Notes: generated from the letters alone by a model not told the origin. A stretch of 52,612 bases of DNA from Acidimicrobiia bacterium (GCA_041576165.1 JBFGLM010000034.1:1-52612), one strand, 5' to 3'; counted from the first letter of the stretch, positions 1,462 through 17,602 are shown. Program-made: numbers and translations.

Positions 1462-2406
1462 TCACCCCAGCTGCGCGGCCAGCTTACGGGCGGCCGTCCA
1501 CGGATCCAGCCGCCGCGCCAAGACTTCATCACGCAACTGGCTGAGGAGCTCATCCTCGGACGCCAGCTGAGTCCGCCGGACCAGCTCGGCCACCACCGCC
1601 CGCCGCATGTCTTTCTCCAACCGGTCGCGGCGGCGGGCCTCCAGTTCGCCCGTCTCGACCAGGTGGGCCCGGTGCGCAATGACCGCCTCCCACAGCTCGG
1701 CAACCCCTTCCCCGGTGGTGGCGATGGTGGCGACGATGGGCGGGCGCCACGGGCGGGTGGTGCCCAGGTCGAGCATTTGCTCCAGGTCGCGGATGGTGTC
1801 GCGCACTCCCTCCCGGTCAGCTTTGTTCACCACGAAGATGTCGCCGATCTCGAGCAACCCGGCCTTGTTGGCCTGCACACTGTCACCCCACCCGGGATTC
1901 ACGACGACGACCGCAGTGTCGGAGTTATCGACGATCTCGACCTCAGCTTGGCCGACGCCGACCGTCTCTATGAAAACGTAGGGCTTGCCAACCGCGTCCA
2001 GGACTGCCACCGCTTTGGGAGTGGCGGCTGCCATCCCCCCGAGGTGCCCGCGACTGCCCATCGAGCGGATATACACCCCTTCGTCGCTGATGTGATCCTG
2101 CATGCGGATTCGGTCACCGAGGATGGCACCGCCTGTGAACGGGGACGAAGGATCTACCGCAATGACGGCCACCTCGTTGCCCAACTCTCGCATGTGTGTG
2201 ATGAGGCGGTCGGTGAGGGTGCTCTTGCCGGCTCCCGGTGCACCGGTCAGGCCGACGACATAGGCGCGGCCCGTGCGCGGGAAGAGAAGCGCCATGGCCT
2301 CGTCGGCACCGGGGCGATCCTCCTCGACCATCGAGATCAGCCGAGCGATCGCCCTGCGATCACCCGACGTACCGGCCGCCACAAGTTGGGCGGCATCGCT
2401 GGACAT
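1462..2406 (-). CDS. meaB: Methylmalonyl-CoA mutase-associated GTPase MeaB/ArgK
   Basis: GLTGAPGAGKST, DPSSPFTGGAILGDRIRM, ETVGVGQ, VVNKAD motifs. Confidence 0.93.
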   Translation of the reverse strand: MSSDAAQLVAAGTSGDRRAIARLISMVEEDRPGADEAMALLFPRTGRAYVVGLTGAPGAGKSTLTDRLITHMRELGNEVAVIAVDPSSPFTGGAILGDRIRMQDHISDEGVYIRSMGSRGHLGGMAAATPKAVAVLDAVGKPYVFIETVGVGQAEVEIVDNSDTAVVVVNPGWGDSVQANKAGLLEIGDIFVVNKADREGVRDTIRDLEQMLDLGTTRPWRPPIVATIATTGEGVAELWEAVIAHRAHLVETGELEARRRDRLEKDMRRAVVAELVRRTQLASEDELLSQLRDEVLARRLDPWTAARKLAAQLG

Positions 2407-3205: not shown

Positions 3206-3556
3206 TCAGACCGCCGCCAGGGCGGCCTCCTCACTGTCATAGATGCCGATCGCCTCGTCGAGGCGTGTCAGCGAAAAGATCTCCCGGTAATGGTCCGAGA
3301 GCCCGTACGCAGACAACTTGTGCCCCGAGCGCTGCGCACGGATGAGGGTGGTGACGAGCAACCCGATGCCACCGCTGTTCATGTATTCGAGATCACTGAA
3401 ATTCAGGATCACTGCCCGGGGATGGGCTGCAGCCGCCTTCTCGTGGGCCGCGGCTATCTCTGCCTCACTGAATGCAGTTATCTCGCCGTGGATGTCGATC
3501 GCCGCCACCTGATCCGCGGCATCACGCACGGTCATGGTCACGTTGGCAGTTGGCAA
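3206..3556 (-). CDS. STAS-domain anti-anti-sigma factor-like protein
   Basis: IDIHGEI...VILNFSDLEYMNSGGIGLLV...YREIFSLTRLD; phosphorylatable Ser in YMNS; TTG start with GAAGGAGG RBS. Confidence 0.92.
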   Translation of the reverse strand: MPTANVTMTVRDAADQVAAIDIHGEITAFSEAEIAAAHEKAAAAHPRAVILNFSDLEYMNSGGIGLLVTTLIRAQRSGHKLSAYGLSDHYREIFSLTRLDEAIGIYDSEEAALAAV

Positions 3557-3569
3557 CTTCGTTCCTCCT

Positions 3570-3911
3570 TCAATCGCCCGCCACTACTGCGGGGCGGGCA
3601 TGAATCGTCATGAAATCGGAGAGACGGGTTATCTGGAACAGCTCGCGGTAGTGGTCGCTGAGGCCAAACGCGCCGACCTCTCGATGGTTGGCCCGGGACT
3701 GGGCCAGGATCCCGACAATCAGAGCGATACCGGTCGAGTTGATGTAGTCGACGTCCTCGAAGTCGAGGAGCAGCTGTCCCGGTCCTCGGTTGGCTTCGGC
3801 GTAGGCGTCGGCCAGCCCCTCCTGCGCGGCTCGATTGATGTCCCCGTGAAGTTCGATCAAGGTATCGGGACCGTCGATGTTGACCTTTGCGGCAAACGGT
3901 CTACCCGGCAT
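3570..3911 (-). CDS. STAS-domain anti-anti-sigma factor-like protein
   Basis: IELHGDI...LLLDFEDVDYINSTGIALIV...YRELFQITRL. Confidence 0.92.
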   Translation of the reverse strand: MPGRPFAAKVNIDGPDTLIELHGDINRAAQEGLADAYAEANRGPGQLLLDFEDVDYINSTGIALIVGILAQSRANHREVGAFGLSDHYRELFQITRLSDFMTIHARPAVVAGD

Positions 3912-5502
3912 CTGCGGCTCCTTGCCTGTTGACGATCAGTTCGATCGTGTGTCTCCCGTTCTCGCTGACCGAACTGAACTGGTCGACCATTCGTTCGATG
4001 AGGAACAGACCCCATCCCCGCGGGGTTTGCCGGCCCGACAACTTCGCCTCGATATCCGGGGTGGGAGCGCCGGACAGGTCGATGGCGTCGCCGCTGTCCG
4101 AAACTCGCACGGCGATGGTGGTGGGCGATGCTTCGACCGAAACAGATACTTCGAGGTCAGTTCGATACTGGTTGCCGTGCTCGATGGCGTTCATGACCGT
4201 TTCGCCCACGGCCGTCTTCAGCCGTTCCAGCTGACGGTGCTCCAAGCCCAATTCGGCCACCGCCTCCTCCACCCCGTCGATGGCGATACGTTCGTTGCCC
4301 TCGACCGATGGCACCGTGAAATCGGCCAGTACCCGGCGTGCACCGCCGACCGGATCTATCGGGACTTCCGAAGGATCCATTACCGAGAGCGTGCGGCGCA
4401 CCACCACCAGCGTGATGTCGTCCTCCTGTTGGACCTCGGGACCGGTGTGGGCCTCAACGTCTGTGACGATGGATGTCACCAGTTCGTCGCTCTCCACCAA
4501 GCCCACCCGGCCGAATAGGCGCGCAAACCCGTACATCTCACCGGCCGGGTTGTGAGCCTCGGTGATGCCGTCGGAGCTGAGCACCATGACGTCGCCGTCG
4601 CCGAAATCGAATGTGCGCTCTTCGTAGTGCATGCCCGGCAGCAAGCCCAGCGGCATCCCGGTCGCCCGCAGCTCCACCACCCCGCCACCCGTTCGTATAT
4701 ACGGCAGGTTGTGGCCCGCGTTGGCGAGCGTCATGCGCCCCGCTCCGGTTTCGATGATTGCATACAGACACGTGACGAACATCGCCGGAGGTATCTCATC
4801 GACCAGAATCTCGTTGACGTCGGCCAACACCGCACCCGGCGTGTTGTTCCGGGTGGCCGCGGCCCGCAAGACGGATCGGCACGTAGCCATCACTAGCGCC
4901 GCCGGGACGCCCTTGTCGGTGACGTCACCGATGGCAACCCCTAGCCGGTCTCCCGGCAATTCGATGAAGTCGTAGAAGTCGCCGCCGACCGATCGGGCCG
5001 GCCGGTAGAACGCATCAACGCTCCAGCCCGTGCGTTCAGGAAGCTCCTTGGGCAGCAGCGTCTGCTGTATGAGCGCGGCCACCGCCAGTTCCTGCTGGAT
5101 GCGCTCCCGCTCCTTCGCCTCCGCCTGTTGCTCCCGGACCAGCTGCGCCACCCGCATGGCCGGCGCCACCTGAGACGCCAGGTTCGCCAACAGCTTGCGG
5201 TCGTCGCTCGAATAGGGCTGGTCGGAGAGGCGGGGTCCCAGGTATAGGGCGCCGAGCAGTTCTCCCTGGCCCACCAAAGGAACGATCAGCACAATGCCCG
5301 TCTGGCGCAGCGCCTTCAAAGCCTCGGAGTCCATGTCGAGTCCGGCCGTCTCAACCGGGGCGGCCACGCTGACGAGGTAGGAGTGCAGCGGGTCGTCCTC
5401 GGTTATCGGAATCGCGTCGACGGCGGGAACTTCAGGCGATGCGGGTTCCAGAGCAGCTTCTACCTGCTCGCTCCGCTGGCGACGACGCAGCACAGAGACC
5501 AT
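3901..5502 (-). CDS. SpoIIE/PP2C phosphatase with N-terminal partial GAF domain and C-terminal RsbW-like HATPase domain
   Basis: IVPLVGQGELLGALYLG...YSSDDRKLLANLASQVAPA (GAF second half); VGGDFYD, IGDVTDKGVPAAL, SDGITEA, EDDITL (PP2C); ETVMNAIEHG, VSDSG, RGWGLFLI (HATPase). Confidence 0.92.
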   Translation of the reverse strand: MVSVLRRRQRSEQVEAALEPASPEVPAVDAIPITEDDPLHSYLVSVAAPVETAGLDMDSEALKALRQTGIVLIVPLVGQGELLGALYLGPRLSDQPYSSDDRKLLANLASQVAPAMRVAQLVREQQAEAKERERIQQELAVAALIQQTLLPKELPERTGWSVDAFYRPARSVGGDFYDFIELPGDRLGVAIGDVTDKGVPAALVMATCRSVLRAAATRNNTPGAVLADVNEILVDEIPPAMFVTCLYAIIETGAGRMTLANAGHNLPYIRTGGGVVELRATGMPLGLLPGMHYEERTFDFGDGDVMVLSSDGITEAHNPAGEMYGFARLFGRVGLVESDELVTSIVTDVEAHTGPEVQQEDDITLVVVRRTLSVMDPSEVPIDPVGGARRVLADFTVPSVEGNERIAIDGVEEAVAELGLEHRQLERLKTAVGETVMNAIEHGNQYRTDLEVSVSVEASPTTIAVRVSDSGDAIDLSGAPTPDIEAKLSGRQTPRGWGLFLIERMVDQFSSVSENGRHTIELIVNRQGAADAG

Positions 5503-5523
5503 GAGCGCTTTCTAGCTCTCGAC

Positions 5524-5540
5524 CGTTCCGAATCCGTTAC
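5524..5540 (-). promoter_or_regulatory. GTAACG-N5-GGAACG direct repeat (11-bp period) upstream of the PP2C gene; putative SARP-type operator
   Basis: Plus strand CGTTCC at 5524 and CGTTAC at 5535; same motif at 6100 and 12840. It overlaps the SRPBCC stop codon. Confidence 0.5.
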
Positions 5541-6064
5541 GAGGTGCGGCTGGAGGGCTGGTTGGTCTCCAAATCATCCGTTCCCGGTCCCGACCGAAAC
5601 TCCACCAGCCGCCCGCCCAAGCGCTTGGCCATCTCCGTTGCGCCCTTGCGCATGACGCGGTGATACGCCCACTCGAGCAGAGGACCCGCAATCGGCGCCA
5701 CCAGATTCATCCACGGGCGGGTGGTCGAGACGTTCCAGTTGTACCGGATCCGCGTCCGAGAGCCCTCTTCACTGAGCCGGTACTGACCAATGCCGGCCAC
5801 GTCACCCGTCGCCGTGATGCGGATGAGGGTTGGACGCTCGATCGCAGTCACACTGGTTTCGAACACCATCGAGTAAAGGAGCGGGCTTCGGATCGCATAG
5901 GCAACCCTTGCGCCCAAGCCCGACTTCTCGCCCGGGTCGATCACGGCCGCCCGCTTGACCGAGGGCCACCAGCCGGGAATCTCCTCAAACCGTGCCAGCA
6001 GGTCGAACACAGCCTCGACGGGGGCGTCGACGACCCACCCTGTCTCGAACCGGTAATACGCCAC
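5537..6064 (-). CDS. SRPBCC/polyketide cyclase family protein
   Basis: W.VDAPVEAVFDLL...IPGWWPSV...GDVAGIGQYRL...TRIRYNW pattern; GGAAAGGA RBS. Confidence 0.88.
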   Translation of the reverse strand: MAYYRFETGWVVDAPVEAVFDLLARFEEIPGWWPSVKRAAVIDPGEKSGLGARVAYAIRSPLLYSMVFETSVTAIERPTLIRITATGDVAGIGQYRLSEEGSRTRIRYNWNVSTTRPWMNLVAPIAGPLLEWAYHRVMRKGATEMAKRLGGRLVEFRSGPGTDDLETNQPSSRTS

Positions 6065-6099
6065 GTGAATTCCTTTCCGTCCCCAGTGTCCCGACGAGG

Positions 6100-6116
6100 C
6101 GTTACCAGACCGTTAC
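6100..6116 (-). promoter_or_regulatory. GTAACG-N5-GTAACG perfect direct repeat (11-bp period); putative SARP-type operator
   Basis: Plus strand CGTTAC at 6100 and 6111; on the minus strand GACACT (-10-like) follows 9 nt downstream. Confidence 0.6.
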
Positions 6117-6154
6117 GGTCCGCTGTTTCTGGCCGGCCCGTAACGGGTGCCGGG

Positions 6155-7357
6155 TCATGGCGCCATCCACACCCTGGCCTTGACCGGCCGCAGTGCCGCA
6201 TCCACAGTTGCCATCCAGTCATCGAGGAGCCGGCCAACGTCACTGTCGTCTCGCCACCGATGTGAGAAGGCTTCGGCAATCCGTGCCGAGTCGTAGCGCG
6301 ATCGATAGAAACGGCGATCGACCCACTCCAGGATTCGCCGGCGGACTGGCCGGAACACAGCAGCTGCCGCCAGCGTCGAGGCCGCCACAAACACGGAGGG
6401 GCTCTCGTCAGGCAACATGCTCCCCGGAAGCCACACCGCGCCGCCCACGTAGACAAGCGCAAGGACGCCGGTAACGAGCGCATAAGCAAGGGTGCGGGAG
6501 ATGACGCGGTCGATCTCGTAGAGGCGGTACTTCGTGACGGCGACCGCGATGGCGGTTGGACCACCGATCAAGAGGACAGCGCCGCCCAGTTCGTTGGCCT
6601 GCGCCAGTGGTGGAATCAAGCTCAGAAGCAGCAGGACGGAACCGAGCAGAAGGGCATAGGCGAGCCACTTCATCTGAAGCCGCTCGACACCCGTGCTTCT
6701 GAAGAACCTCACGAGAAGCCGAAGCAGGGCGGTGAGCACCGTGGGAGCGACCAAGAGAAACGCAGTGTCGTTGGCGATGCGCCCGACGCCACCCAGGATC
6801 TCCGAGTCGCGGAAGCTGAGCAGCGGCCCTGCGAGCTCCACGGCAGCCGGCGCGCCACCCGGCATCAGCACCGTACGCCACGTAGCAGGTGCAGTGAACC
6901 ACGACGCAACGAGCGCCGACACCAGTCCCAAGCTCAACAGCCAGGCGAGCGCCCTTGCCAGAAGGGTCCGCATTTCGCCCGATGGAAACAGCAACGCGAG
7001 CCCGCCTAGTGCGGGCAAGACGATTGGATTCGCCAGCCACTGTGCGTGGGCCGCCGCGTCCGCAACCGGCAGTCCAGATCCGAGCGCGGAAGCCAAGGCG
7101 TATTCCGACCCGGCGATATTGAGGGAGAGGGCGGCGGCCAGCGAGAGCATGACCCAACCAACTGCGTTACCGGCACGCGCCCAGACGATGAGCAGCCCCA
7201 CCGTGCTGAAGGCGATCGCCGCCATCGACGGGAGGTACCGTTCGACCGTATCGCCGGCGATCGTGTGACGATTCGCCGCAAGTAGCACGAGGCCGGCGAC
7301 GGCCAGGACTCCGCTGACGAGCCAGAAGGCAACGGCGGCGGCGCGAACGCGTTTCAT
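6155..7357 (-). CDS. Multi-pass membrane sensor-like protein, array paralogue 6 (most distal)
   Basis: Start MKRVRAAAVAFW at 7357 overlaps the upstream stop (ATGA); many TM segments; shared motifs LLFPSG, GVERLQMKW, KYRLYEIDRVISRT, FVAASTL, VDRRFYRSRYD, ends RPVKARVWMAP. Confidence 0.85.
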   Translation of the reverse strand: MKRVRAAAVAFWLVSGVLAVAGLVLLAANRHTIAGDTVERYLPSMAAIAFSTVGLLIVWARAGNAVGWVMLSLAAALSLNIAGSEYALASALGSGLPVADAAAHAQWLANPIVLPALGGLALLFPSGEMRTLLARALAWLLSLGLVSALVASWFTAPATWRTVLMPGGAPAAVELAGPLLSFRDSEILGGVGRIANDTAFLLVAPTVLTALLRLLVRFFRSTGVERLQMKWLAYALLLGSVLLLLSLIPPLAQANELGGAVLLIGGPTAIAVAVTKYRLYEIDRVISRTLAYALVTGVLALVYVGGAVWLPGSMLPDESPSVFVAASTLAAAAVFRPVRRRILEWVDRRFYRSRYDSARIAEAFSHRWRDDSDVGRLLDDWMATVDAALRPVKARVWMAP

Positions 7358-8379
7358 GATCGTGTCCTCACCCACACACCCACCGACGACGGTTGCACGG
7401 TTCTCCAAACGGCCTCGACCCAATCTTGGGTCAGAGGCGCCATGTCGGCCAGGGTGCGGAGCCGGTTCGAGAACGCCTCGGTGACGTGCTCGGCGTTGTA
7501 GCGGGTGCGGTAGAAGCGGCGGTCGACCCATCCGGTGACACGGCGACGCACCGGATTGAACAGGGCCGCGACTGCCAGGGTGGAGGCCGCGACGAATAGC
7601 GGCGAGCTTCGTCCGCTGAGGACCTGCGTCGGAAGCCACACCGCGCCGGCCGCATATACCAGACCGAGCAGCCCGATCACCAGTGTGTAGCTGACGGTGC
7701 GGGAAATGATGCGATCGAGCTCGTAGAGGCGGTATTTGAGAATCGCGACGCCGATGGCCGTCGGGATGAGGACCAGCCCTCCGGTCAACCCAATGCTCGC
7801 GACAACCGAGTCCTGCCACCCTCCGAACTCTGCCAGCGCACCTATCCCGAAAACCATGAAAGGTGCGATCAGCCACTTCAGCTGCTGCCGCTCCACTCCG
7901 GCCGACCGCACCCAACGGACGACGAGCGAGGCGATCGCGCACATGATGGCGGCCAGGGTCAACGCGTTGCCGGCGAGCATCACGCATGCGCCGGGGCTCA
8001 CGCAGGAGTCGATCGTTTCCAACGCCTCTCGTCCCTCGATGAAGCTGTAGATGCCGGCGCCGGTCAAGAGCGTGGCAGGAGCCACCACGCCCAACCAGCC
8101 GACCCATCGCCATCCCAGGGTTGGAGGTGCGCCCGTGGGGAACCACAGCGGCACGAACACGCCAAAACCGGGAAGGACCAGCGCAAACAGCGCGACGCCA
8201 CTCACCGCTCCCTCCGGACCATCGGCCAGCAGGGGGCTGAGGCTCATTACGAGGAAGCCGACGGTGACGGCCAGCAACACCCACGACACACGGTTGTGTG
8301 GTACACGGATCACCAACACCCCTGCGATCGTCCCAATCGTGGCGACCGCCGCAATGAACACGATGACGTCGGCGGTCAT
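7354..8379 (-). CDS. Multi-pass membrane sensor-like protein, array paralogue 5
   Basis: Start MTADVIVF at 8379; WFPTG, GVERQQLKW, KYRLYELDRIISRT, VDRRFYRTRYNA, RTVQPSSVGVWVR. Confidence 0.85.
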   Translation of the reverse strand: MTADVIVFIAAVATIGTIAGVLVIRVPHNRVSWVLLAVTVGFLVMSLSPLLADGPEGAVSGVALFALVLPGFGVFVPLWFPTGAPPTLGWRWVGWLGVVAPATLLTGAGIYSFIEGREALETIDSCVSPGACVMLAGNALTLAAIMCAIASLVVRWVRSAGVERQQLKWLIAPFMVFGIGALAEFGGWQDSVVASIGLTGGLVLIPTAIGVAILKYRLYELDRIISRTVSYTLVIGLLGLVYAAGAVWLPTQVLSGRSSPLFVAASTLAVAALFNPVRRRVTGWVDRRFYRTRYNAEHVTEAFSNRLRTLADMAPLTQDWVEAVWRTVQPSSVGVWVRTRS

Positions 8380-8435
8380 CGCCCGGAACGAGCGGTCTGG
8401 ACTGGTGCGTTCACCCACAAATCGAGCGAGTTCAT
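8376..8435 (-). pseudogene. 19-aa remnant ORF MNSLDLWVNAPVQTARSGR, probable scar of a deleted array paralogue
   Basis: Start overlaps the upstream stop (TGATG) and stop overlaps the downstream start (ATGA); SLDLWV resembles the paralogue C-terminal SLGLWV, also at DNA level. Confidence 0.55.
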
Positions 8436-9283
8436 CAGCTGCGGACCCACATGGCGATGAGTGACGGCTGAACCGTCCGCTGAACCGAATCACCGAGAAT
8501 CTCGGACACTTGGCGAGCGTCCACCTGGCTGCGGAGTCGCAGGTCGGCGACCGGATGCTCGAGATCGCCCAACAGCAATCCAAAACCAGCACTCATGAGG
8601 GCGGCCAACACGAATGCGAACAGCGGCAGGACCACCAGCTTGAGTTGTTGGCGCTCGAAGGCTTCGCTGCGTCGCCAGCGTCCGACCAGCGATCGGAGCG
8701 CTAGCAGAGCCAGCATCGCCACGCCCCAGCCGGCGGCCACTTCGAGAGCGGAATCGCGCAACGGACGCAGCAGATCCCCGCCGACAGGGTTGAGGATCTC
8801 GGTCGATCCCAGCTGTCCTGGCCGCACGAGGTAGTAAGTGGTCAGGACCGCTGCAAACAGCAGAACGATTCGTTCTGCGACGATCCAGCGCCCGGTCGCA
8901 ACGCGCCCCGTCGGATACCACAGGATCCAGAGCGGTATCAGTGCTATCCCTGCCACAACGGCCGCTTCGGTGATAACAATCAGCGGTCCAGCGGGCCAGC
9001 CTGACCGTACCGCCGCCAGCTGGCCGGCTGCACCACCAGGAACCAGGATGCCGATCCCGGCGAGGAGCCAACTCAGCCGGTTGTCAGGCCTGCGCACCAC
9101 CAGGAAAGCGCCGACGAGCGGAAACCCGAGCCACGACAAGAGCCAGATGGCATCAAATCCGCGTACGTCATCCGCGCTCGCGAGCCAGAGAACGATCAAG
9201 AGCGCGGTTGTGGCGGCCAGTGCTGCAACCGGCCAACGCACCCGGTGCCAACGCAAGCGATCGGACCTGGCCTGAAACGTCAT
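8435..9283 (-). CDS. Multi-pass membrane sensor-like protein, array paralogue 4, with in-frame internal deletion (possible pseudogene)
   Basis: Start MTFQARS at 9283 (ATGA overlap); has RRPDNR, WYPTG, ERQQLK and the RTVQP..IAMWVR tail, but lacks the RYRLYEIDR...RRFYRxRYD block found in the other five. Confidence 0.75.
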   Translation of the reverse strand: MTFQARSDRLRWHRVRWPVAALAATTALLIVLWLASADDVRGFDAIWLLSWLGFPLVGAFLVVRRPDNRLSWLLAGIGILVPGGAAGQLAAVRSGWPAGPLIVITEAAVVAGIALIPLWILWYPTGRVATGRWIVAERIVLLFAAVLTTYYLVRPGQLGSTEILNPVGGDLLRPLRDSALEVAAGWGVAMLALLALRSLVGRWRRSEAFERQQLKLVVLPLFAFVLAALMSAGFGLLLGDLEHPVADLRLRSQVDARQVSEILGDSVQRTVQPSLIAMWVRS

Positions 9284-10452
9284 GCCCGCACCCACAAACC
9301 CAGCGAGGCGGGCTGCACCGTACGCCGCACTGCCCCTACCCAGCCGTCGGTGAGCCGCCGGGAGTCGACCTCGTCCCGGAGTAGTGCCGCAAACGCCTCA
9401 GCAACGAGATCGGCGTCGTACCGGGCACGATAGAAGCGGCGGTCGGTCCAGCTGACCACGCGCCGCCTGAGCGGGTTGAACAGCGCCGCCACCACCAGCG
9501 TTGAGGCGGCAACAAACAGCGGCGGTGCGTCTTGGGCCACCAGCGAACTGGGCAGCCACACCGCACCCACCGTGTAGACCAAGCCCAAGATCCCAACCAC
9601 CAGCGCATACGCGGCAGTGCGCGACGCGATCCGGTCGATCTCATATAGGCGATATCGCAGGATGGCTACGGCGGTCGTGATCGGGATCGCGAGAACGAAT
9701 ATCGCCCAGAGCCAGTTCCAGTTGGGGATGATGTCTTGGAGCAGAGTCGCCTCGAGCACCGACAGGCTCACGAGCGCGGTCATGGTGTACAGCAACCATT
9801 TGAGCTGCTGGTGCTCGACCCCCCGCGACCGGAAGAAGCGCACGGCCAGGCTGAGCACCGAACTCAGCACGAACACGACTACGATCCAGGTCACGAACGG
9901 TTCCAGCCATCCGAACTCAGGGTGCGGGATCCAGCTGAAGCCGATCGGATTCTTCACCCATTGCTCGCAGAACCCCGCGCGAGCGTCCATGCAGAGCTCA
10001 CTGGAGAATGTGTAGCCGATCAACACAAGAGCAGTTCCGGCGAATCCGAGCCACTCGACCCAGCGCCACCGCGGGGTCAACAAGCGGCCGGTCGGGAACC
10101 ACAGCAGGGCGAAACCGGTCAGGAAGAACGCTGTGGACCATGCGGCCGAGGTCAGAACGGACCCGAATGCGGTATTCGGCGCGATCGTGTCACCGGCCGC
10201 AATCAGCAGGAACCCGATGGCGATGAACGCCCAGCCGACCCTATGTCCCGCGAGCCTGGTCGCGATCAGCGCCCCCACGGCCACGAACGCCAGATCGACA
10301 AACCCGAAAATGACGTCGGTCGCGGCCTCATCCAGGCCGGCCTGTCCATTCCATTCGGTGGTGACGGCCTGCGCGATCACCAGCCCCATCGCCACCGCCA
10401 GGACAATGAGGGGCAGCCGGGGAGGGCGCCGCAGGCTCGATTGGGCGATCAC
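9280..10452 (-). CDS. Multi-pass membrane sensor-like protein, array paralogue 3
   Basis: GTG start at 10452 overlaps the upstream stop (GTGA); GHRVGW, WFPTG, NPIG, GVEHQQLKW, RYRLYEIDR, RRTVQPASLGLWVRA. Confidence 0.85.
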   Translation of the reverse strand: MIAQSSLRRPPRLPLIVLAVAMGLVIAQAVTTEWNGQAGLDEAATDVIFGFVDLAFVAVGALIATRLAGHRVGWAFIAIGFLLIAAGDTIAPNTAFGSVLTSAAWSTAFFLTGFALLWFPTGRLLTPRWRWVEWLGFAGTALVLIGYTFSSELCMDARAGFCEQWVKNPIGFSWIPHPEFGWLEPFVTWIVVVFVLSSVLSLAVRFFRSRGVEHQQLKWLLYTMTALVSLSVLEATLLQDIIPNWNWLWAIFVLAIPITTAVAILRYRLYEIDRIASRTAAYALVVGILGLVYTVGAVWLPSSLVAQDAPPLFVAASTLVVAALFNPLRRRVVSWTDRRFYRARYDADLVAEAFAALLRDEVDSRRLTDGWVGAVRRTVQPASLGLWVRA

Positions 10453-11627
10453 CGTCGGACCCACAAACCCAGCGAGGCCGGCTGGACCGTGCGCCGGACC
10501 GCCCACACCCAGTCCCCGGTCAGTTGGCATACCTCGGTCTGGTCACGTAGCCGGCTCGACAGCGACTCAGCCACCTGCGTGGCGTCGTACCGGGACCGGT
10601 AGAACCGCCGGTCCATCCACCACATCACGCGGCGGCGCAGCGGGTTGAACAGCGCTGCCACCGCCAATGTGGATGCAGCCACGAACAGCGGAGGCGATTC
10701 CTCTGCCACCAGGCTGCTGGGCAGCCACACCGCCCCGGTCGCATACACGAGTGCCAGTAGTGCGATCAGGAGCCCGTACCCGAAAGTGCGCGACACGATC
10801 CGATCGATCTCATACAGCCGGTACCGGAGGATGGCGATCGCCGCGGCGACCGGCATTGCCAGGCTCAACATTGCGAGAATTGCACCGATCAGGGCGTCGG
10901 AGATGACGTTCCGAAGCAGCCACTCGCTGACGACCGTGGCTGTCACAAGGGCGGTCGTTGCGTACACGAGCCAGGACAACTGCTTCCGCTCCATGCCCTG
11001 AGAGCGCACAAACCGGATCACCAACGACCCGGCCGCAGTCAGCACAAAGCCGGCCGTGAGGGGTAAAAGAAGCTTCTCGAGCCCACTGACTTCGGGGTTC
11101 GGAATCCAGCTGACACCGATCGGGTTGGTGGTGTACCCGACACACTGTTCGCCGACGAAGTGCGTACAAATCTCAGCCGCGAAGAGATGACCGAGCACGC
11201 TGACGGCACCGGCGCCATAGCCCACCCACTCGAGCCACTGCCATCTGGATGACAGCGGCCTGCCGGACGGGAACCAGAGCATCACGAATCCGATCAGGAA
11301 GACCCACGAGATATACAGAGCGTTGCCAATCGCATCGCTGACGATGCTCCCAGGCAACAGGTGTTTCGCTCCGTTCACCAGCAGTGCGAGCCCAGTCACG
11401 ACGAAGACCCACCCGATCCGGTGTCCACTGGTTCGATGAATGATCAACGAGCCGATCGCTGCATAGATAAGACTTGCAAACATGAGCGGGAGTTCGACCA
11501 CCAGCTCTTCCGTCGGCCGCTCGTTCAACAAAAGCAACGCGACGCCCGTGCCAAACAGCAAGCTGGCCACGAGAAAGATCACAAAGGGGAACTTCCAGGG
11601 GCGCAGAGCTGTGGGTGCGTGCTTCAC
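10449..11627 (-). CDS. Multi-pass membrane sensor-like protein, array paralogue 2
   Basis: GTG start at 11627 (GTGA overlap); GHRIGW, WFPSG, NPIG, RYRLYEIDR, RRTVQPASLGLWVRR. Confidence 0.85.
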   Translation of the reverse strand: MKHAPTALRPWKFPFVIFLVASLLFGTGVALLLLNERPTEELVVELPLMFASLIYAAIGSLIIHRTSGHRIGWVFVVTGLALLVNGAKHLLPGSIVSDAIGNALYISWVFLIGFVMLWFPSGRPLSSRWQWLEWVGYGAGAVSVLGHLFAAEICTHFVGEQCVGYTTNPIGVSWIPNPEVSGLEKLLLPLTAGFVLTAAGSLVIRFVRSQGMERKQLSWLVYATTALVTATVVSEWLLRNVISDALIGAILAMLSLAMPVAAAIAILRYRLYEIDRIVSRTFGYGLLIALLALVYATGAVWLPSSLVAEESPPLFVAASTLAVAALFNPLRRRVMWWMDRRFYRSRYDATQVAESLSSRLRDQTEVCQLTGDWVWAVRRTVQPASLGLWVRR

Positions 11628-12784
11628 GTCCGCACCCACAGCATCATTCCCGTCGGTTGGACCGTACGGCGTACGGCCCATACCCAGTGAGCCGTCAGCT
11701 GAGTCACCTCGGTCTGCTCACGCAGGCGGCTCGCCAGCGAGTTCGCCACCTGCTCCGCGTCGTACCGAGAGCGGTAGAACCGCCGGTCCATCCAGCGGAT
11801 GACCCGTCTGCGTACCGGGTTGAACAGCGCTGCGACCGCCAGGGTCGACGCAGCCACGAACGGCGGGGTCGCTTCTTCACCCAGGAGCTCGGCAGGTAGC
11901 CAGATCGCCCCAGTCGCATACACCAAACCCAACAACGCGATCAGAAGCCCGTACCCGAACGTGCGCGACACGATTCGATCGATGTCGTACAGCCGGTACC
12001 GCAGGACGGCCACTCCGATTGTCAGAGGGATTGCCCAGGCGGCGACGAACCACACGTATTCGCCCGGTCCTTCCGGGAGCACCTGGCCGGCCGAAATCGT
12101 GATCAGGAACGTCGCGGCACCCCACAACACCCATCGGAACTGTTGCCGCTCAACACCATGGCTGTGGCGCCATCGCCGGACCAAGGCTGCCAACGCCACC
12201 CCCACGATGAGCAACATGGCGTGAAAGCCCGAAGCGCCCGAGTCCCTGGTGATGAACTCCGAAATCCCGGACATCGGGGCGAACGCGAGCGGGCTGGGTT
12301 TGCCCGTGTATTCCATCGGCGTACTCGATACGGCAAAGGCGGCCAGCACCACCGCCAGGTAAACCAGCAGGATACGGGCCGTCAGCCGCTCGGCCCGGCC
12401 GGCATAGGCGCCGCTGGGAAAAACCAGCAACACCCAGATGATCATGAACCAGGGGACCACCCCGGCCAGAACGTTGCCCAGCTCGAGCCAAGCCGCAGCC
12501 CGTCCCAGTGGGATCTCAGCTGCGGCCTGGGAGAGGATGAAGCCGGTTCCCCACCAGAACCCGATCGCCAGCAGGGCGTTGCCCACCCGATTGTCGGGTC
12601 GCCGCCGGACGATCACGTAGCCCACCGGGGCCCACAGGATCCAGACAAGCGGCCATGTGAAGTCTGGGCCCAACAGGCCGCCGAACGTGCCGATGCCAAT
12701 GCCGCCGGTTGCAACCGCGAGAGCGAACAACCTGAGAGCCGATCGCCACCTAGGTTCAACCCCGACAGGAGCCTGGACGCGCAC
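11624..12784 (-). CDS. Multi-pass membrane sensor-like protein, array paralogue 1 (promoter-proximal)
   Basis: RRPDNRVG, VFPSG, GVERQQFRW, RYRLYDIDR, RRTVQPTGMMLWVRT; start uncertain (GTG at 12784 chosen). Confidence 0.82.
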   Translation of the reverse strand: MRVQAPVGVEPRWRSALRLFALAVATGGIGIGTFGGLLGPDFTWPLVWILWAPVGYVIVRRRPDNRVGNALLAIGFWWGTGFILSQAAAEIPLGRAAAWLELGNVLAGVVPWFMIIWVLLVFPSGAYAGRAERLTARILLVYLAVVLAAFAVSSTPMEYTGKPSPLAFAPMSGISEFITRDSGASGFHAMLLIVGVALAALVRRWRHSHGVERQQFRWVLWGAATFLITISAGQVLPEGPGEYVWFVAAWAIPLTIGVAVLRYRLYDIDRIVSRTFGYGLLIALLGLVYATGAIWLPAELLGEEATPPFVAASTLAVAALFNPVRRRVIRWMDRRFYRSRYDAEQVANSLASRLREQTEVTQLTAHWVWAVRRTVQPTGMMLWVRT

Positions 12785-12839
12785 GAGTGGTCTTCTCGAT
12801 CTCGTCAGCCGATTCGTGCCGCACACATAGGACGAAGGA

Positions 12840-12856
12840 CGTCACGGAACCGTTAC
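12840..12856 (-). promoter_or_regulatory. GTAACG-N5-GTGACG direct repeat (11-bp period) between the array and the divergent BTAD regulator
   Basis: Plus strand CGTCAC at 12840 and CGTTAC at 12851. Confidence 0.6.
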
Positions 12857-12938
12857 GAAACGGCGGAATGAACCCATTGTCGCGCCATACCGCCGGGCGT
12901 ATGCTCCGCGCGATGAGAGGGGCTGCCGAACGCTCGAT

Positions 12939-15641
12939 GTGAAGCTCTTCGGGAACCCGAGCTTCACGCTCGACGGAACGGCGGTGACCGCCGACACCCG
13001 TAAGGCGAGCGCGCTCCTGGCATATCTCGTGGTGGAAGGACCTTCCGCCAGGGACGTGCTGGCGGCCCTGCTGTGGCCGGAATCTCCCCATTCACGAGCT
13101 CGGGCCACGCTGCGGCGCACGCTCTCAGCCATAAGGTCCGCGATGGGGCCCAACGTGCTGCTCGCGGATCGCAACCATGTGCGACTCCACGCCGGCGTGC
13201 GGGCCGACGTGACCACCTTCGAAAAGTCACTGGCGGCGGCGGATCAACACAGCCACATTGACCGTGAGTTGTGTCCCGCATGCACGGCAAGCCTCCAAGC
13301 CGCGGTCGACGCATATTGCGGAGATTTCCTGGCGGGCTTCTATCTGCGGGACTCTCCCGAGTTCGACGACTGGACCCGCCAGACCGCAGAGTCCTACCGG
13401 CTCGCCTGCGAGCGCGCCTATGAGCGTCTATCGATCGCCTTCGCCGCTCAAGGGGACTACCGGAGGGCGATCGACGCCGCTCACCAGTGGTTGGAGCTCG
13501 ACCGGCTGCGGGAGCCTGCCTATCGCCAGCTAATGCTGCTCAACGCCTGGGCCGGCGACCGCGCCGCTGCCGCAGAGACGTACCGCCGGTGTTTGACGAC
13601 ACTCAACCGGGAACTCGGAGTGGATCCGCTTGCCGAAACAACCGAGCTGTACGACGCCGTGCTGGACGACGACCTTCCACCATCGCCGGGACCGCGACGG
13701 CCGGCCGTGCCCCAACCCTCCCTCCGGCCATCGCCTCCACCGGATCTCGTCGACCGCCGCCACGAGCTCGAAGTTCTGGCTCGTGCCATGACGGACCAAC
13801 CTGGCGGGACGGTGATACGGCTCGTTGGGGAGGCCTGGATGGGCAAGACCCGCTTGATCGAGGAGGCGCGATCCCTCGCGGAAGAACAAGGACGACCGGT
13901 CGTTGCGGTGCGGGGATACCGAGCAGAACGGCAGCTCCCGTTTGGCGTCGTAGCGCAGGCGCTCGGAGCCTTGACCAACCTCCCCGATTGGAAGGCGACC
14001 CGGGGAACCGTTCCAGCCTGGGCGCGGCGGGAGACAGCCCGCATCTACCCAGACCTGGGACCCGGCCCTGCCACGGGCTCCGACACCTTCGCAGAAACCA
14101 GGCTATACGACGCATTGCTGCGGGTTCTGACGGCTGGACCCATCGTCTATCTGGTCGACGACACGCATTGGGTCGACGAATCATCGCTGGCTGTCTTGAC
14201 CTACCTGGTCAACCGGATCACGTCGACGGGCACGCTGGTGGTCTTCGCTCACCGCCCCGAAGAAGACCGGAACCTCGGTTCGCTGGTCGAAGCGGCCGCG
14301 ATGCACGGACCGCCGCTCGTACTCGAGCCGCTGACGCCCGCCGCGATCCCGGACACCGACGACGCTGACTCGATCATCGCCAGAACCGGCGGTATTCCCG
14401 TACTGGTGGCTGAGGCCCTGGCAGGGGGCGGAGGTGCGACGCCCACTCCCGGCGTGCGCCGGTTCATGAAAGTGCGATTGGCGGATCTCGACGAGCTGAG
14501 CCGCCAGGTGCTGGCGGCGGCTTCTGTGCTCAGCGGTAGCAGCGACTTCGATCTCCTGCGGGAGGTCAGCGGACGCAGCGAGGAAGAGGTGATCGCGGCG
14601 GCCGAAGCACTCACGGCTCGACGCATCCTCACGACGAGCGGCGACGGCGAGCTCGACTTCTCGCTGGCAACCATGAAACAGCTCGTATACGAAGAGACGA
14701 GCTTGATCCGGCGCCGGCTGCTCCACCGCCGGGCCGCCGAAACCTTGGACACCAGGCCGCGAGCCCAGACCGATGCCGTGCTGGCGACAGCGATCGCCCA
14801 GCATCATCAGCGAGGCGGACAGGATGAACGAGCCGCCGAGTGGTACGTCCGGGCCGGCCGATTGGCCAGGGAAGTGTTCGCTCCGGCTGAAGCCATACGG
14901 TCGTTCCAGACGGCGCTCGCGTTGGGCCGCTCTGACGAGGCCGAAGTGCGAATCGATCTGGGCGACACCCTCCTGTTCATGGGTCGATTCAGTCGGGCTG
15001 TCACTGAATTCGAGATTGCTGCTTCTCTCACCGAAGGACCAGCGCGCGCTGTCGCCGGACACCGCATCGGGGAAGCGAACCGCCGGCTGGGGCGCCTCGA
15101 CGTGGCGCTCGAGCGCTTCGCCCTAGCCGAGCGGGACCATCCTGATCCCGTTTCGCTCTATTGCGATTGGGCCCTCGCTCTCCTTCGGCGAGGGGAGCGC
15201 AAGGCTGCCCGCGAGAAGGCCGATCGGGCCGTCGTGGCATCAGAAAAGGCCGGTGCCGCCGGACGCTCGCGGGCGCTGGCCGTGCTGGGGATCGTCAGCG
15301 GCCATCGGGCCGAGGCACGCCGGTCGCTGATGGCCGCTCTGGAACTTGCCGGCAACGATCCAATCCTGCGTATGGCGGCCCTCAATGCCTTGGCACATTC
15401 CCATGCTCAGTCCGACGAGCATTCGGATGCGCTCATGCTGGTCGACGAGGCACTCCGACTGGCCGCTGCCATCGGAGACCGCCACCGTCAAGCGGCGCTC
15501 TACAACCACTTGGCAGATCTGTACCACCGCATGGGCCGGGACGCCGACAGCGAGGCCGCGTTGAAGGAAGCCGTCAAACTCTTCGTCGAGGTCGAACCGG
15601 GGGCATGGGAACCGGAGGTATGGTTGCTGACCTGGTGGTAG
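12939..15641 (+). CDS. AfsR/SARP-like regulator: winged HTH + BTAD + AAA/STAND ATPase + TPR repeats
   Basis: KASALLAYL...LAALLWPE...ARATLRRTLS (wHTH); GDFLAGF...FDDW, LDRLREPAYRQLM, ELGVDPLAET (BTAD); GEAWMGKT and LVDDTHWVD (Walker A/B); TGGIP; helical repeats. Exact start uncertain. Confidence 0.92.
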   Translation: MKLFGNPSFTLDGTAVTADTRKASALLAYLVVEGPSARDVLAALLWPESPHSRARATLRRTLSAIRSAMGPNVLLADRNHVRLHAGVRADVTTFEKSLAAADQHSHIDRELCPACTASLQAAVDAYCGDFLAGFYLRDSPEFDDWTRQTAESYRLACERAYERLSIAFAAQGDYRRAIDAAHQWLELDRLREPAYRQLMLLNAWAGDRAAAAETYRRCLTTLNRELGVDPLAETTELYDAVLDDDLPPSPGPRRPAVPQPSLRPSPPPDLVDRRHELEVLARAMTDQPGGTVIRLVGEAWMGKTRLIEEARSLAEEQGRPVVAVRGYRAERQLPFGVVAQALGALTNLPDWKATRGTVPAWARRETARIYPDLGPGPATGSDTFAETRLYDALLRVLTAGPIVYLVDDTHWVDESSLAVLTYLVNRITSTGTLVVFAHRPEEDRNLGSLVEAAAMHGPPLVLEPLTPAAIPDTDDADSIIARTGGIPVLVAEALAGGGGATPTPGVRRFMKVRLADLDELSRQVLAAASVLSGSSDFDLLREVSGRSEEEVIAAAEALTARRILTTSGDGELDFSLATMKQLVYEETSLIRRRLLHRRAAETLDTRPRAQTDAVLATAIAQHHQRGGQDERAAEWYVRAGRLAREVFAPAEAIRSFQTALALGRSDEAEVRIDLGDTLLFMGRFSRAVTEFEIAASLTEGPARAVAGHRIGEANRRLGRLDVALERFALAERDHPDPVSLYCDWALALLRRGERKAAREKADRAVVASEKAGAAGRSRALAVLGIVSGHRAEARRSLMAALELAGNDPILRMAALNALAHSHAQSDEHSDALMLVDEALRLAAAIGDRHRQAALYNHLADLYHRMGRDADSEAALKEAVKLFVEVEPGAWEPEVWLLTWW

Positions 15642-16033: not shown

Positions 16034-17602
16034 TCAGGGGACGATGACAACGGTGGTGACGGCCGAGCCGCTGCCATCTTCCGACCGGGCAGAGAGCACC
16101 ACCCGGTACGGTCCGAGCGGAGCGATCTCGCCGTCCACGGTCGCGTCCCACACAAAGGACACAGGCCCGGCTTCGCGGACATCCCATTCGGTCTGACCCA
16201 CCACTTCTGCGCCGCGGAAGACCGTGATGCGGGTCTCGGAAGGAGCGGACAGCTCCGCCCCGATCCGCACGACCACGCCTGATCGATGCTCGGTGCGGGG
16301 TTCGACGTTGCGGATCACTGGCGGGAAGCCCTGCCCGCCGGGCGGTATGACCGCTACGTTGTCACCATCGGCCTGGAACTCCCAGGTGCCGAGGGCGGCC
16401 TCGGCCAGCAGCTCACCATCTGCTGCAACCTCGAACGGGCCGTCGGCACTCAACGACAGGACCGGTTCACCCCACGTGAGGCCAACTTCGACGGTCGCGG
16501 GAAGCACTTCCGCCCCGGACCTTGGCTCCAACCCGCCGTAGTAGTGCGCCAGGATCTCGCCGTACTCAGCCCCGGCACTTGCCATCGCCTGCGCACCATA
16601 CTGGCTCATTCCGACCAGATGGCCCCACCCGTTGCCCTCGATCCGGTAGATCGGGGTCGCAGTGATGTAGCCGAACGTGAAGTCCTGGCCGATCTCCCAG
16701 TCGCGCGTGACGTCAAATGTCGGCGACAGGATGACTTGCGGATAACGCCGACCGTCAGGACGATTCGCCGGCAGCAGGTCGGGCAGCACCCGCGGCCCCG
16801 AGCGGTTCATCGCTCGCCGGAACTGCCAGGTTGACAGCAACTCCGAGGCTCCGCTCGACTCAATCTCGACCCTCCAGGGACCGGCCCCGTCCGCCGTCCT
16901 GGTCACCGACACGTCGCGTAGGCGACCCACGGCCAGCTCGGCATCCTGGAGCACCCGCTCGAGCTGTGGCCCGGTCAGCTCCACCGTCCATTCCACAAAC
17001 GGTGATGCTTCGTTGGGTGATTCGACCGCCCGGAGATACGGAACAGGTCGCGTCCCGAACACGTCCTGCACATCGCGGGTCCGTCCACCGGAGGTCGAGC
17101 TGTAGAGGGCCTGCGCGGGGCGGTCGTTGAACAGCAACACTTCGTTGGCGGTTTGCTCGACGGCGGCGGCCCAGCGTCCCCCTTCAATCCCTTCGACCTG
17201 ATCTATCCCTCCATACACTTGGCATTGGTCAGTCGCGCAGATGTCAAACCCGTACGTAGCACCCGCTCCGTTACGTCCCAGACTGAGCGTCCAGGCCAGG
17301 TAGGTCCGGGCTGCCACCGCCTGGGCCTTGAGCGCATCAGGCTCCCATGAGAACGGAACTTCTTGGATTCCGAGCAAGTAGTCGTCAACGGAGAGAGTCT
17401 CGACCAAGACCAGACCTCCGTCGACAGCCCGGATTTCCATCACCCCTGCGTATCTCGTGCCGTTCCAGTCGAGGGCAGCGCCATCCGCCGGCTGGAGCGT
17501 CACCACGTCGTACACCGACAAGCCCTCTGGTTCCTCCTGGGCAAAGGCCGGCGGTGCTATGAGAAGCAAGGAGATCAGCACGGGCACAAGACGCGGAAGC
17601 AC
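16034..17602 (-). CDS. Secreted SpoIID/LytB-domain protein (lytic transglycosylase-like)
   Basis: Signal peptide; YLLGIQEVPFSW..ALKAQAVAARTY, DICATDQCQVYGG, GWGHLVGMSQYGA, ILAHYY; FlgD-Ig-like C-terminus. Confidence 0.9.
   Translation of the reverse strand: MLPRLVPVLISLLLIAPPAFAQEEPEGLSVYDVVTLQPADGAALDWNGTRYAGVMEIRAVDGGLVLVETLSVDDYLLGIQEVPFSWEPDALKAQAVAARTYLAWTLSLGRNGAGATYGFDICATDQCQVYGGIDQVEGIEGGRWAAAVEQTANEVLLFNDRPAQALYSSTSGGRTRDVQDVFGTRPVPYLRAVESPNEASPFVEWTVELTGPQLERVLQDAELAVGRLRDVSVTRTADGAGPWRVEIESSGASELLSTWQFRRAMNRSGPRVLPDLLPANRPDGRRYPQVILSPTFDVTRDWEIGQDFTFGYITATPIYRIEGNGWGHLVGMSQYGAQAMASAGAEYGEILAHYYGGLEPRSGAEVLPATVEVGLTWGEPVLSLSADGPFEVAADGELLAEAALGTWEFQADGDNVAVIPPGGQGFPPVIRNVEPRTEHRSGVVVRIGAELSAPSETRITVFRGAEVVGQTEWDVREAGPVSFVWDATVDGEIAPLGPYRVVLSARSEDGSGSAVTTVVIVP

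Follow-up and report, generated by a model that had tools for sequence, protein, structure and literature searches.

The usual link between a receptor and its output enzyme is covalent, or else is made by dedicated docking domains or by phosphotransfer. In the stressosome, several RsbR paralogues feed one RsbT/RsbU output by way of a STAS scaffold and a kinase, and in the donor-strand complementation of pili and in split inteins a fold is completed by a strand or fragment of another polypeptide. Here we describe an operon within a 52,612-nucleotide stretch (hereafter the window; GCA_041576165.1, JBFGLM010000034.1:1-52612) of the metagenome-derived genome of an Acidimicrobiia bacterium, with all coordinates given for the whole stretch, in which six membrane receptor genes (R1-R6) accompany a single enzyme that possesses both a PP2C phosphatase domain and an HATPase_c_2 kinase domain. 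The operon is best explained as a partner-switching-type phospho-signaling system in which the input GAF domain is cut at the loop after its first strand, with the beginning of the fold in the C-terminal tail of the receptors and the remainder in the enzyme. A natural and widespread fission inside the GAF domain, with amplified membrane receptors on one side of the cut and one PP2C/kinase enzyme on the other, is well supported, and the most likely mechanism, which we consider probable, is that receptor tail and enzyme rebuild a predicted GAF domain between two chains.

Receptors and output enzyme of the operon

On the minus strand, the open reading frame (ORF) listing places the six tandem receptor genes first, followed by an SRPBCC gene, the enzyme, and two STAS genes. 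The six receptors align along their length, with approximately nine hydrophobic segments in R3, and at E ≤0.1 no Pfam family was present in R1-R6 save one sub-threshold DUF6332 match in R6, in keeping with a first-pass annotation of the sequence that had predicted membrane receptors devoid of a catalytic domain. None of the receptors in the window matches HisKA_7TM (PF16927), for which a precomputed match was present in two of the best 120 homologues and in the fused kinase P0025. The same annotation had described a tail common to five of the six receptors and ending in a tryptophan. R1, R2, R3, R5, and R6 do share a full C-terminal tail, consisting of DRRFYRxRY(D/N), ~40 residues, (T)VQP or ALRP, five residues, and the tryptophan, though the tryptophan is not the last residue, as a further 2-5 residues precede the stop (WVRT, WVRR, WVRA, WVRTRS, and WMAP). 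Amongst these five paralogues identity amounts to 24% in the N-terminal half, 52% in the C-terminal membrane part, and 54% in the tail, and the tail of R6 (..ALRPVKARVWMAP) is more divergent than the others. In R3 the order of the tail is a juxtamembrane helix with RRFYRARYD, GAF helix alpha1, and GAF strand beta1 (TVQPASLGLWVR). As had also been noted in the annotation, R4 has undergone a deletion, in-frame, that leaves only the last part of the tail (..VQRTVQPSLIAMWVRS); based on a reading of the paralogue alignment, about three membrane helices, the RRFYR motif, and most of alpha1 have been lost and the last strand is well conserved.

The enzyme matches SpoIIE/PP2C (PF07228; 3.4e-50) and HATPase_c_2 (PF13581; 3.9e-19) and, amongst solved structures, is closest to Rv1364c (3ke6, E 1.8e-21), with SpoIIE, SpoIIAB, and RsbW next and the kinase domain matched by SpoIIAB (1.2e-12) and RsbW (2e-10). 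Four aspartates (D193, D311, D361, and D362) that are invariant across 63 homologues are taken here to be the PP2C metal-binding positions, and further positions invariant in the 63 enzymes presumably represent the kinase ATP-binding motifs. Ahead of these domains the enzyme has a partial GAF_3 match (profile positions 28-127 of 129, enzyme residues 7-116), and the solved GAF domain 4mn7_A (149 amino acids (aa)) aligns to the enzyme only from its own residue 46, such that the GAF domain of the enzyme is headless, without helix alpha1 and strand beta1. The most hydrophobic 19-residue window of the enzyme (residues 70-88, score 1.85) corresponds to the GAF hairpin and not to a membrane helix, consistent with the proposed absence of a transmembrane segment. 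No single gene accounts for a complete GAF domain of the Pfam families PF01590, PF13185, and PF13492, the match in the enzyme being partial and poorly modeled alone (see below) and the receptors having no Pfam GAF match.

The components of a partner-switching system are encoded in the operon, with a PP2C domain, an HATPase_c_2 domain, and STAS proteins that carry the relevant serine, and phosphorylation itself is what would be expected from the family. The presence of two STAS proteins and of a SARP/STAND gene, both claimed from the sequence at first reading, was borne out by Pfam. STAS protein 1 carries ..INSTG.. and, in STAS protein 2, the serine of ..YMNSGG.. aligns with the conserved serine of ..YMDSAG.. 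in TM1442 (1sbo).

Gene fission inside the GAF domain

Natural single-chain fusions of the membrane, GAF, and PP2C parts, for which the first-pass annotation had recommended a search, do exist. Amongst 57 longer homologues of R3, the same membrane part and a GAF domain are followed by PP2C in six and by HisKA_3 in 34. One of the single chains, P0019 (932 aa), comprises the membrane part, GAF, PP2C, and HATPase_c_2 and is tiled by the two genes of the window, with R3 residues 214-415 aligned to P0019 residues 188-424 (E 1e-30), enzyme residues 21-525 aligned to P0019 residues 432-929 (51% identity, E 7e-163), and a gap of seven residues between the alignments. Based on this tiling, a common locus, and co-occurrence across genomes, receptor and enzyme constitute a Rosetta-stone (fission/fusion) pair. 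The whole-profile Pfam GAF match in the fused relatives P0040 and P0050 begins at the helix that equals the second helix of the receptor tail. Amongst 10 fused kinases, Pfam matched the whole GAF profile only in P0050, the others matching its C-terminal part only, and a profile of 23 fused kinases found GAF domains in the PDB mostly through their C-terminal part; one match, 6oap_A (E 4e-4), spans profile positions 383-494 and is estimated to start roughly after the juxtamembrane motif.

Phylogeny of the PP2C core places 61 of the 63 split enzymes in one clade (support 100/96), with nine fused and two divergent split forms outside of this main clade in an unresolved position. Fission from a fused ancestor appears likely, with the direction of change not proven because the root of the tree rests on one long outgroup branch. 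Collectively, these results argue for a natural split within a folded domain that has been stable over evolution.

Structure and complex prediction

An AlphaFold2 (AF2) model was made for a natural fused GAF segment (179 aa, 24-row alignment) from a related genome (locus L049). The model has a predicted local distance difference test (pLDDT) score of 91.1 and a predicted template modeling score of 0.80 and consists of a long juxtamembrane helix (2-33), a helix (39-54), a strand (59-63), and then the remaining domain, with helix 39-54 and strand 59-63 as the equivalent of the receptor tail. On this model the receptors end at the equivalent of residues ~64-66 and homology to the enzyme starts at ~69. 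The best PDB matches are all GAF domains, including 3jab_B (Z 14.6, root-mean-square deviation (rmsd) 3.4, 150 of 161 residues aligned, model 17-172), 3cit_A (Z 12.8, rmsd 3.3, 140 of 155 aligned, model 11-162), and 4qpr (Z 12.2, rmsd 3.5, 131 of 142 aligned, model 22-159), and the receptor tail is therefore the counterpart of the first helix and strand in this fold. The tail had been proposed at first to supply alpha1, alpha2, and beta1; helix alpha1 and strand beta1 of the GAF domain hold, and the first helix of the tail is juxtamembrane, leading into the GAF domain, and no element of the core.

When the enzyme was modeled alone (AF2, 63-row alignment), the PP2C and kinase domains had pLDDT >90 and residues 1-24 fell below 50. 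Ten-residue blocks over residues 71-120 read pLDDT 71, 48, 54, 64, and 70, and residues 79-86 are modeled as a helix in place of the two long strands of the fused model (pLDDT 90-97). An enzyme N-terminus that folds as a complete domain by itself had been named as an outcome that would overturn the proposal, and AF2 gives no such model.

For the complex, residues 1-135 of the enzyme and residues 350-416 of R3 were supplied, each with its own alignment. The pair passes, with scores of 0.64, 0.64, and 0.65 in three runs and 0.01 for the best of three controls, against a mark that is reached by 58 of 80 solved complexes and two of 110 mismatched pairs, counts that hold only roughly because own alignments were used. 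At least 80% of the contacts agree between the three runs and the pLDDT of the partner is 59 or higher. Contacts with the lowest error are predicted between enzyme residues 83-91 and receptor residues 407-414, in antiparallel orientation, and between enzyme residue 105 and receptor residue 401, such that the enzyme strand 81-91 (ELLGALYLGPR) is the predicted partner of the last strand of the receptor. These predicted strand-strand and helix-helix contacts, which are the ones expected, are those of the packing of an intact GAF domain. In silico, the two halves together correspond to one GAF domain, based on the fused model, Pfam, and the complex contacts, and the complex result speaks for the predicted compatibility of the halves and not for binding.

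Conservation of the two halves

At E ≤1e-3, R3 matches 17321 representatives, of which 2368 remain at the stricter E ≤1e-30. Median length is 396 aa for the best 150, with the end of R3 mapping to their C-terminus, and amongst the 112 of these hits in which the motif pattern was found (it found nothing in the other 38) the receptor stops 41-60 residues past the motif in 107. Where names are given in the source records, the receptors are called 'hypothetical protein' and, twice, 'MFS family permease'. Three tail positions (T404, P407, and W413) are each at least 90% conserved across 100 receptors. For the N-terminus of the enzyme, 747 proteins were found, and lengths of 500-570 aa, together with an MVQLMRRR-like start, are seen in 115 of the best 120. 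In the split enzymes residues 1-8 are strongly conserved (M-V-Q-L-M-R-R-R-K, with R7 in 96 of 115), and the fused forms do not possess this leader. Profile searches of the source genome returned eight tail-bearing ORFs, all of which end at the tail, and one headless GAF match. This pattern of receptor tail and enzyme is far beyond chance.

The assignment of MVQLMRRR to a strand beta2 that pairs with the receptor strand was considered separately and is unsupported because the confident interface starts at enzyme residue 26.

The tails also bear a weaker signal of the genome in which they reside. At a membrane-part identity of 0.3-0.4, tail identity is 58% for pairs from the same genome (n = 17) and 49% for pairs from different genomes (n = 413), and in a regression on 38 receptors from 16 genomes the same-genome term is +0.05, a value reached by none of 500 label shuffles. 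Such likeness would fit co-adaptation of the tails to a shared partner, and gene conversion at the 3' end would give the same.

Synteny and co-occurrence

Gene order was explored in a sample of 101 genomes of the order, 22 of which hold relatives of the N-terminal 150 residues of the enzyme, and twenty loci were read. Receptors (1 to ~10) are directly upstream and on the same strand in 14 of 16 split-enzyme loci (13 of 14 without L044 and L045, which come from genomes flagged as unpublished); the exceptions are L037, with receptors beyond the SARP gene, and L045, with none in the locus. Two STAS genes follow the split enzyme wherever the contig continues, and a SARP gene is inside the fetched stretch in nine of the split-enzyme loci. 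Fused genes of 945/946 aa hold the same place, between the SARP and STAS genes, in G065 and G047 (L050/L051), and three further loci fit the synteny pattern (G287, G253 (another order), and G338). Amongst the rows listed for this sample, both halves are present in 16 genomes. In G099 the enzyme is accompanied by a fragment of a receptor where the contig ends, and G098 (88% complete) possesses receptors only.

Co-occurrence, suggested in the first-pass annotation as a test of the proposal, was assessed in a sample of 301 genomes of the class, of which 24 have the split enzyme (one, G317, flagged as unpublished), one has a fused form, and 276 are without any enzyme match. Receptors are present in all 24 split-enzyme genomes, with strong truncated-receptor matches (best E ≤1e-29) in 22 and a receptor found beside the operon on reading the locus in the remaining two (G287 and G253), and in one of the 276 (G279). 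The result is given as counts and not as a test because related genomes do not count as independent. In the other genomes with receptor-like matches, the rows listed are fused proteins of 680-820 aa. A single enzyme match is the rule (23 of 25 genomes with an enzyme match), receptors number at least 10 in five genomes, and many of the receptors are located on contigs other than that of the operon.

Alternative explanations

Several observations weigh against a GAF domain rebuilt between the two chains. The poor model of the enzyme N-terminus is an expression of the model's uncertainty and no measure of instability, and the complex prediction may pass through likeness to solved GAF folds, as the halves of split genes tend to. 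The confident part of the predicted interface does not include the conserved MVQLMRRR-like N-terminus, which is itself modeled at low confidence, and no covariation of the tail with the enzyme GAF beyond phylogeny was detected in a regression on 45 genome pairs from 10 genomes (coefficient 0.06). A whole-profile Pfam GAF match was found in only two of the 15 fused relatives scanned. The enzyme-less G279 (93% complete) has four truncated receptors and no orthologous enzyme, its best match being 31% identical, and three dispersed receptor loci that were examined share no consistent neighbor and have no headless GAF nearby. Lastly, the ORF list and the Pfam matches of the named genes gave no sigma factor or other output in the operon, the genome itself not having been searched.

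Part of this evidence would also fit receptors and an enzyme that form one functional system in which no GAF domain is rebuilt and the headless GAF is a self-sufficient, degenerate module, with coupling through another surface, such as the basic N-terminal peptide of the enzyme, the cytoplasmic loops of the receptors, or the SRPBCC protein. The N-terminal peptide conserved outside the confident interface, the SRPBCC gene that precedes the enzyme in three loci and is fused to it in P0128, the lack of specific covariation between tail and GAF, and the potential for the complex pass to be a memory of GAF folds are all in line with such an arrangement. Overall, it is considered unlikely, as the alpha1/beta1 features of the tail (the T, P, and W at ≥90%) are kept in diverse receptors, the receptors stop at a near-constant distance past the motif in the pattern-matched top hits, the beta4-beta5 region is poorly formed in the enzyme-alone model, and the predicted contacts match those within an intact GAF domain.

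It is quite improbable that the receptors were uncoupled from the enzyme after fission and act alone or with other partners, the tail having become a relic or a dimerization element and the enzyme being regulated by something else. Co-occurrence is near-perfect, receptors sit directly upstream of the enzyme in most loci, tails are more alike within a genome than between genomes, and the complex prediction passes its mark, despite the receptors of G279, the many receptors dispersed from the operon amongst unrelated neighbors, and the existence of tandem receptor-receptor fusions without an enzyme domain (P0002 and P0004). That the split is an assembly error, a frameshift, or the pseudogenization of a fused gene has next to no probability and is effectively refuted by its recurrence in length-stable families, since, for all the fragmentation of the source genome (161 contigs, 7.5% contamination) and the frameshifted copies in some related assemblies (L039, L040, L042, and L053), the same split point with stable length and a conserved start occurs in hundreds of independent sequences, six receptor genes and the SRPBCC gene precede the enzyme in the window, and several metagenome runs, which may include the source sample and amongst which no RNA run was listed, contain 94-96% of the sampled words of the stretch.

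Proposed mechanism and its meaning

A GAF domain rebuilt between receptor and enzyme remains the favored explanation, with each of the computational tests proposed in the first-pass annotation having turned out in favor, and would operate as follows. The receptor tail would dock on the enzyme, its last strand pairing antiparallel with enzyme strand 81-91 and its helix packing on the last GAF helix of the enzyme. Docking would complete the GAF fold, keep the enzyme at the membrane, and send the state of the receptor down the linker helix, and that state would set the balance of phosphatase and kinase activity on the two STAS proteins, whose phosphorylation and dephosphorylation by the enzyme are predicted by analogy with the family. 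The STAS proteins would in turn act on a further target, for which the conserved SARP/STAND neighbor is one candidate. Several receptors, potentially including those dispersed in the genome, would compete for, or share, the single enzyme.

Extending this mechanism, the enzyme with its incomplete GAF domain may be a socket and the receptors of the operon and elsewhere, up to ten or more in a genome, may be its plugs, with whichever receptor docks completing the fold and imposing its state on the enzyme. This is proposed tentatively, as a possibility of somewhat less than even standing. If true, sensors could be gained, lost, duplicated, and exchanged without touching the output, and a domain usually employed for ligand binding would have been turned into a reversible device for coupling proteins.

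The cut puts a central strand on one protein and the remaining sheet on another, and it is the half bearing the strand that was then amplified. If the halves reassemble, this would account for the wiring of numerous membrane sensors to one partner-switching output in a lineage of Acidimicrobiia and would provide a name and a testable function for a large receptor family (the 2368 representatives above). Reassembly would further offer a natural template for split-domain biosensors and engineered interchangeable inputs, and terminal 'partial domain' matches may then mark split systems and not merely annotation noise.

Other features of the locus and its relatives

The features of the operon and of its dispersed receptors are collected in Table 1.

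Table 1 Features of the operon, its surroundings, and dispersed receptors (positions in the window unless a contig or locus is named)
Feature	Position	Strand	Basis or remark
MeaB-type GTPase	1462-2406	-	flanking gene
ORF, 230 aa	2469-3161		no Pfam or NCBIfam family
STAS protein 2, 116 aa	3206-3556	-	Pfam
STAS protein 1, 113 aa, anti-sigma-antagonist type	3570-3911	-	Pfam; overlaps enzyme stop
Output enzyme, 533 aa: headless GAF, long linker helix, PP2C, HATPase_c_2	3901-5502	-	Pfam, PDB profile, AF2
Headless GAF, enzyme residues ~26-125, without helix alpha1 and strand beta1	5128-5427	-	GAF_3 profile, 4mn7_A, models
Conserved enzyme N-terminus, residues 1-8	5479-5502	-	conservation in split enzymes
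SRPBCC/polyketide_cyc2 protein, 175 aa	5537-6064	-	Pfam PF10604 1.9e-13
R6 receptor, ~400 aa	6155-~7357	-	ORF, alignment, tail profile
R5 receptor, 412 aa by longest ORF	7354-8592	-	ORF, alignment
R4 receptor, 286 aa, internally deleted	8435-9295	-	alignment; partial tail-profile match, positions 34-67
R3 receptor, 416 aa	9280-10530	-	ORF, alignment; query of most searches
R3 cytoplasmic tail, residues 350-416	9283-9483	-	alignment, complex model, equivalent elements in fused model
R2 receptor, 410 aa	10449-11681	-	ORF, paralogue alignment, tail profile
R1 receptor, 400 aa by longest ORF	11624-12826	-	no Pfam family; tail-profile match E 4e-28
SARP/STAND protein, 900 aa, divergent	12939-15641	+	BTAD 1.6e-16, AAA_16 5.4e-15, TPR_12 1.6e-13
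SpoIID-domain protein	16034-17602	-	flanking gene
Dispersed receptor, source genome (G000)	C37:8408-9505	+	neighbors: periplasmic-binding-protein-like gene, luciferase-like gene
Dispersed receptor, source genome (G000)	C41:25641-26921	-	neighbors: OmpR-type two-component pair, CHAT protein
Dispersed receptor, G279	L058:8232-9485		neighbors: cNMP-binding protein, cyclase-TPR protein

Several of the receptors may start elsewhere than their longest ORFs do. A public record starts R3 eight codons later (408 aa), the real start of R5 is probably internal, near 8316, and the start of R6, as read from the translation, would be an ATG that overlaps the stop of R5. This ATGA overlap (7354-7357), together with the 11 bases by which STAS protein 1 overlaps the end of the enzyme (3901-3911), suggests translational coupling within the operon. 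A 709-aa ORF (6155-8284, minus strand) is R6 run upstream through the R5 region in a different frame, because of the high G+C content, and the AT skew, positive over 6-14 kb, fits the T-rich codons of minus-strand membrane-protein genes. R4 could be a copy in decay or a variant that serves a different role; an odd count of lost helices would place its tail on the wrong side of the membrane.

The SRPBCC gene sits between the last receptor and the enzyme in the window and in L034 (9424-9885) and L035 (10576-11049), and in a metagenomic protein, P0128 (676 aa), SRPBCC is fused in-frame to the enzyme in place of the MVQL..RRR leader. Plant PYR/PYL receptors, which are of the START type, regulate PP2C, a pairing that the SRPBCC/PP2C combination recalls, and the SRPBCC protein may be a second, soluble input. 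The SARP/STAND protein is matched by the AfsR and BagI/FevR models far below their cut-offs and has no match to Trans_reg_C at E ≤0.001, and nothing convincing in the way of SARP-type direct repeats was found in the 112-bp divergent intergenic region. The genes flanking the operon are ordinary.

Amongst the relatives of the operon, G041 possesses both a split system (L038, contig C7: three receptors and the enzyme) and a separate fused gene (L049, contig C49), which encodes a membrane-GAF-PP2C protein of 866 aa without the kinase domain, and split and fused forms can therefore coexist. The two receptor-receptor fusions noted above, P0002 (1005 aa) and P0004 (817 aa), are metagenomic and consist of two or three receptor units head to tail, each of which ends in a half-GAF tail. 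Neither contains an enzyme domain, and they could be genuine fusions or the product of gene prediction that ran on from one tandem gene into the next.

Comparison with known systems

The nearest relatives are the single-chain membrane-GAF-PP2C(-HATPase_c_2) and membrane-GAF-HisKA_3 proteins, which share with the split system the membrane part, the RRFYRxRYD-type motif, and a compact GAF domain. The PP2C forms also share the PP2C/kinase output and, in G065 and G047, the locus with SARP and STAS genes. In contrast to these proteins, the chain is here cut after GAF strand beta1 and the receptor part is present in six copies in the operon and two elsewhere, for one enzyme. As in RsbU/RsbV/RsbW, SpoIIE/SpoIIAA/SpoIIAB, and Rv1364c of M. 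tuberculosis, there is a PP2C domain, an RsbW/SpoIIAB-like kinase, and STAS proteins with a serine. The operon differs from the RsbU/V/W and SpoIIE/AA/AB systems in that phosphatase and kinase are one chain, the input GAF domain is without its first helix and strand, and no sigma factor was found within the operon.

Searches of the full-text literature, at the level of listings and abstracts, returned no description of a natural split GAF domain or of reversible GAF completion as a coupling principle in bacterial signal transduction. Folds that are divided between polypeptides are familiar from other settings, including Split-Doa10, a natural split protein in which the fragments of gene fission reassemble (PMC3464245), and the split inteins that are the topic of a passage in PMC8707292. 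Together with strand donation in pili, these systems build fibers, splice proteins, or rebuild one enzyme and, as far as the parts of the sources consulted describe them, none couples interchangeable receptors to a signaling enzyme through a GAF domain.

With the stressosome the operon shares the convergence of many paralogous sensors on one PP2C output. The two differ in the means of coupling, which in the stressosome is a STAS scaffold with its kinase and here would be a domain fold completed by a piece of another chain.

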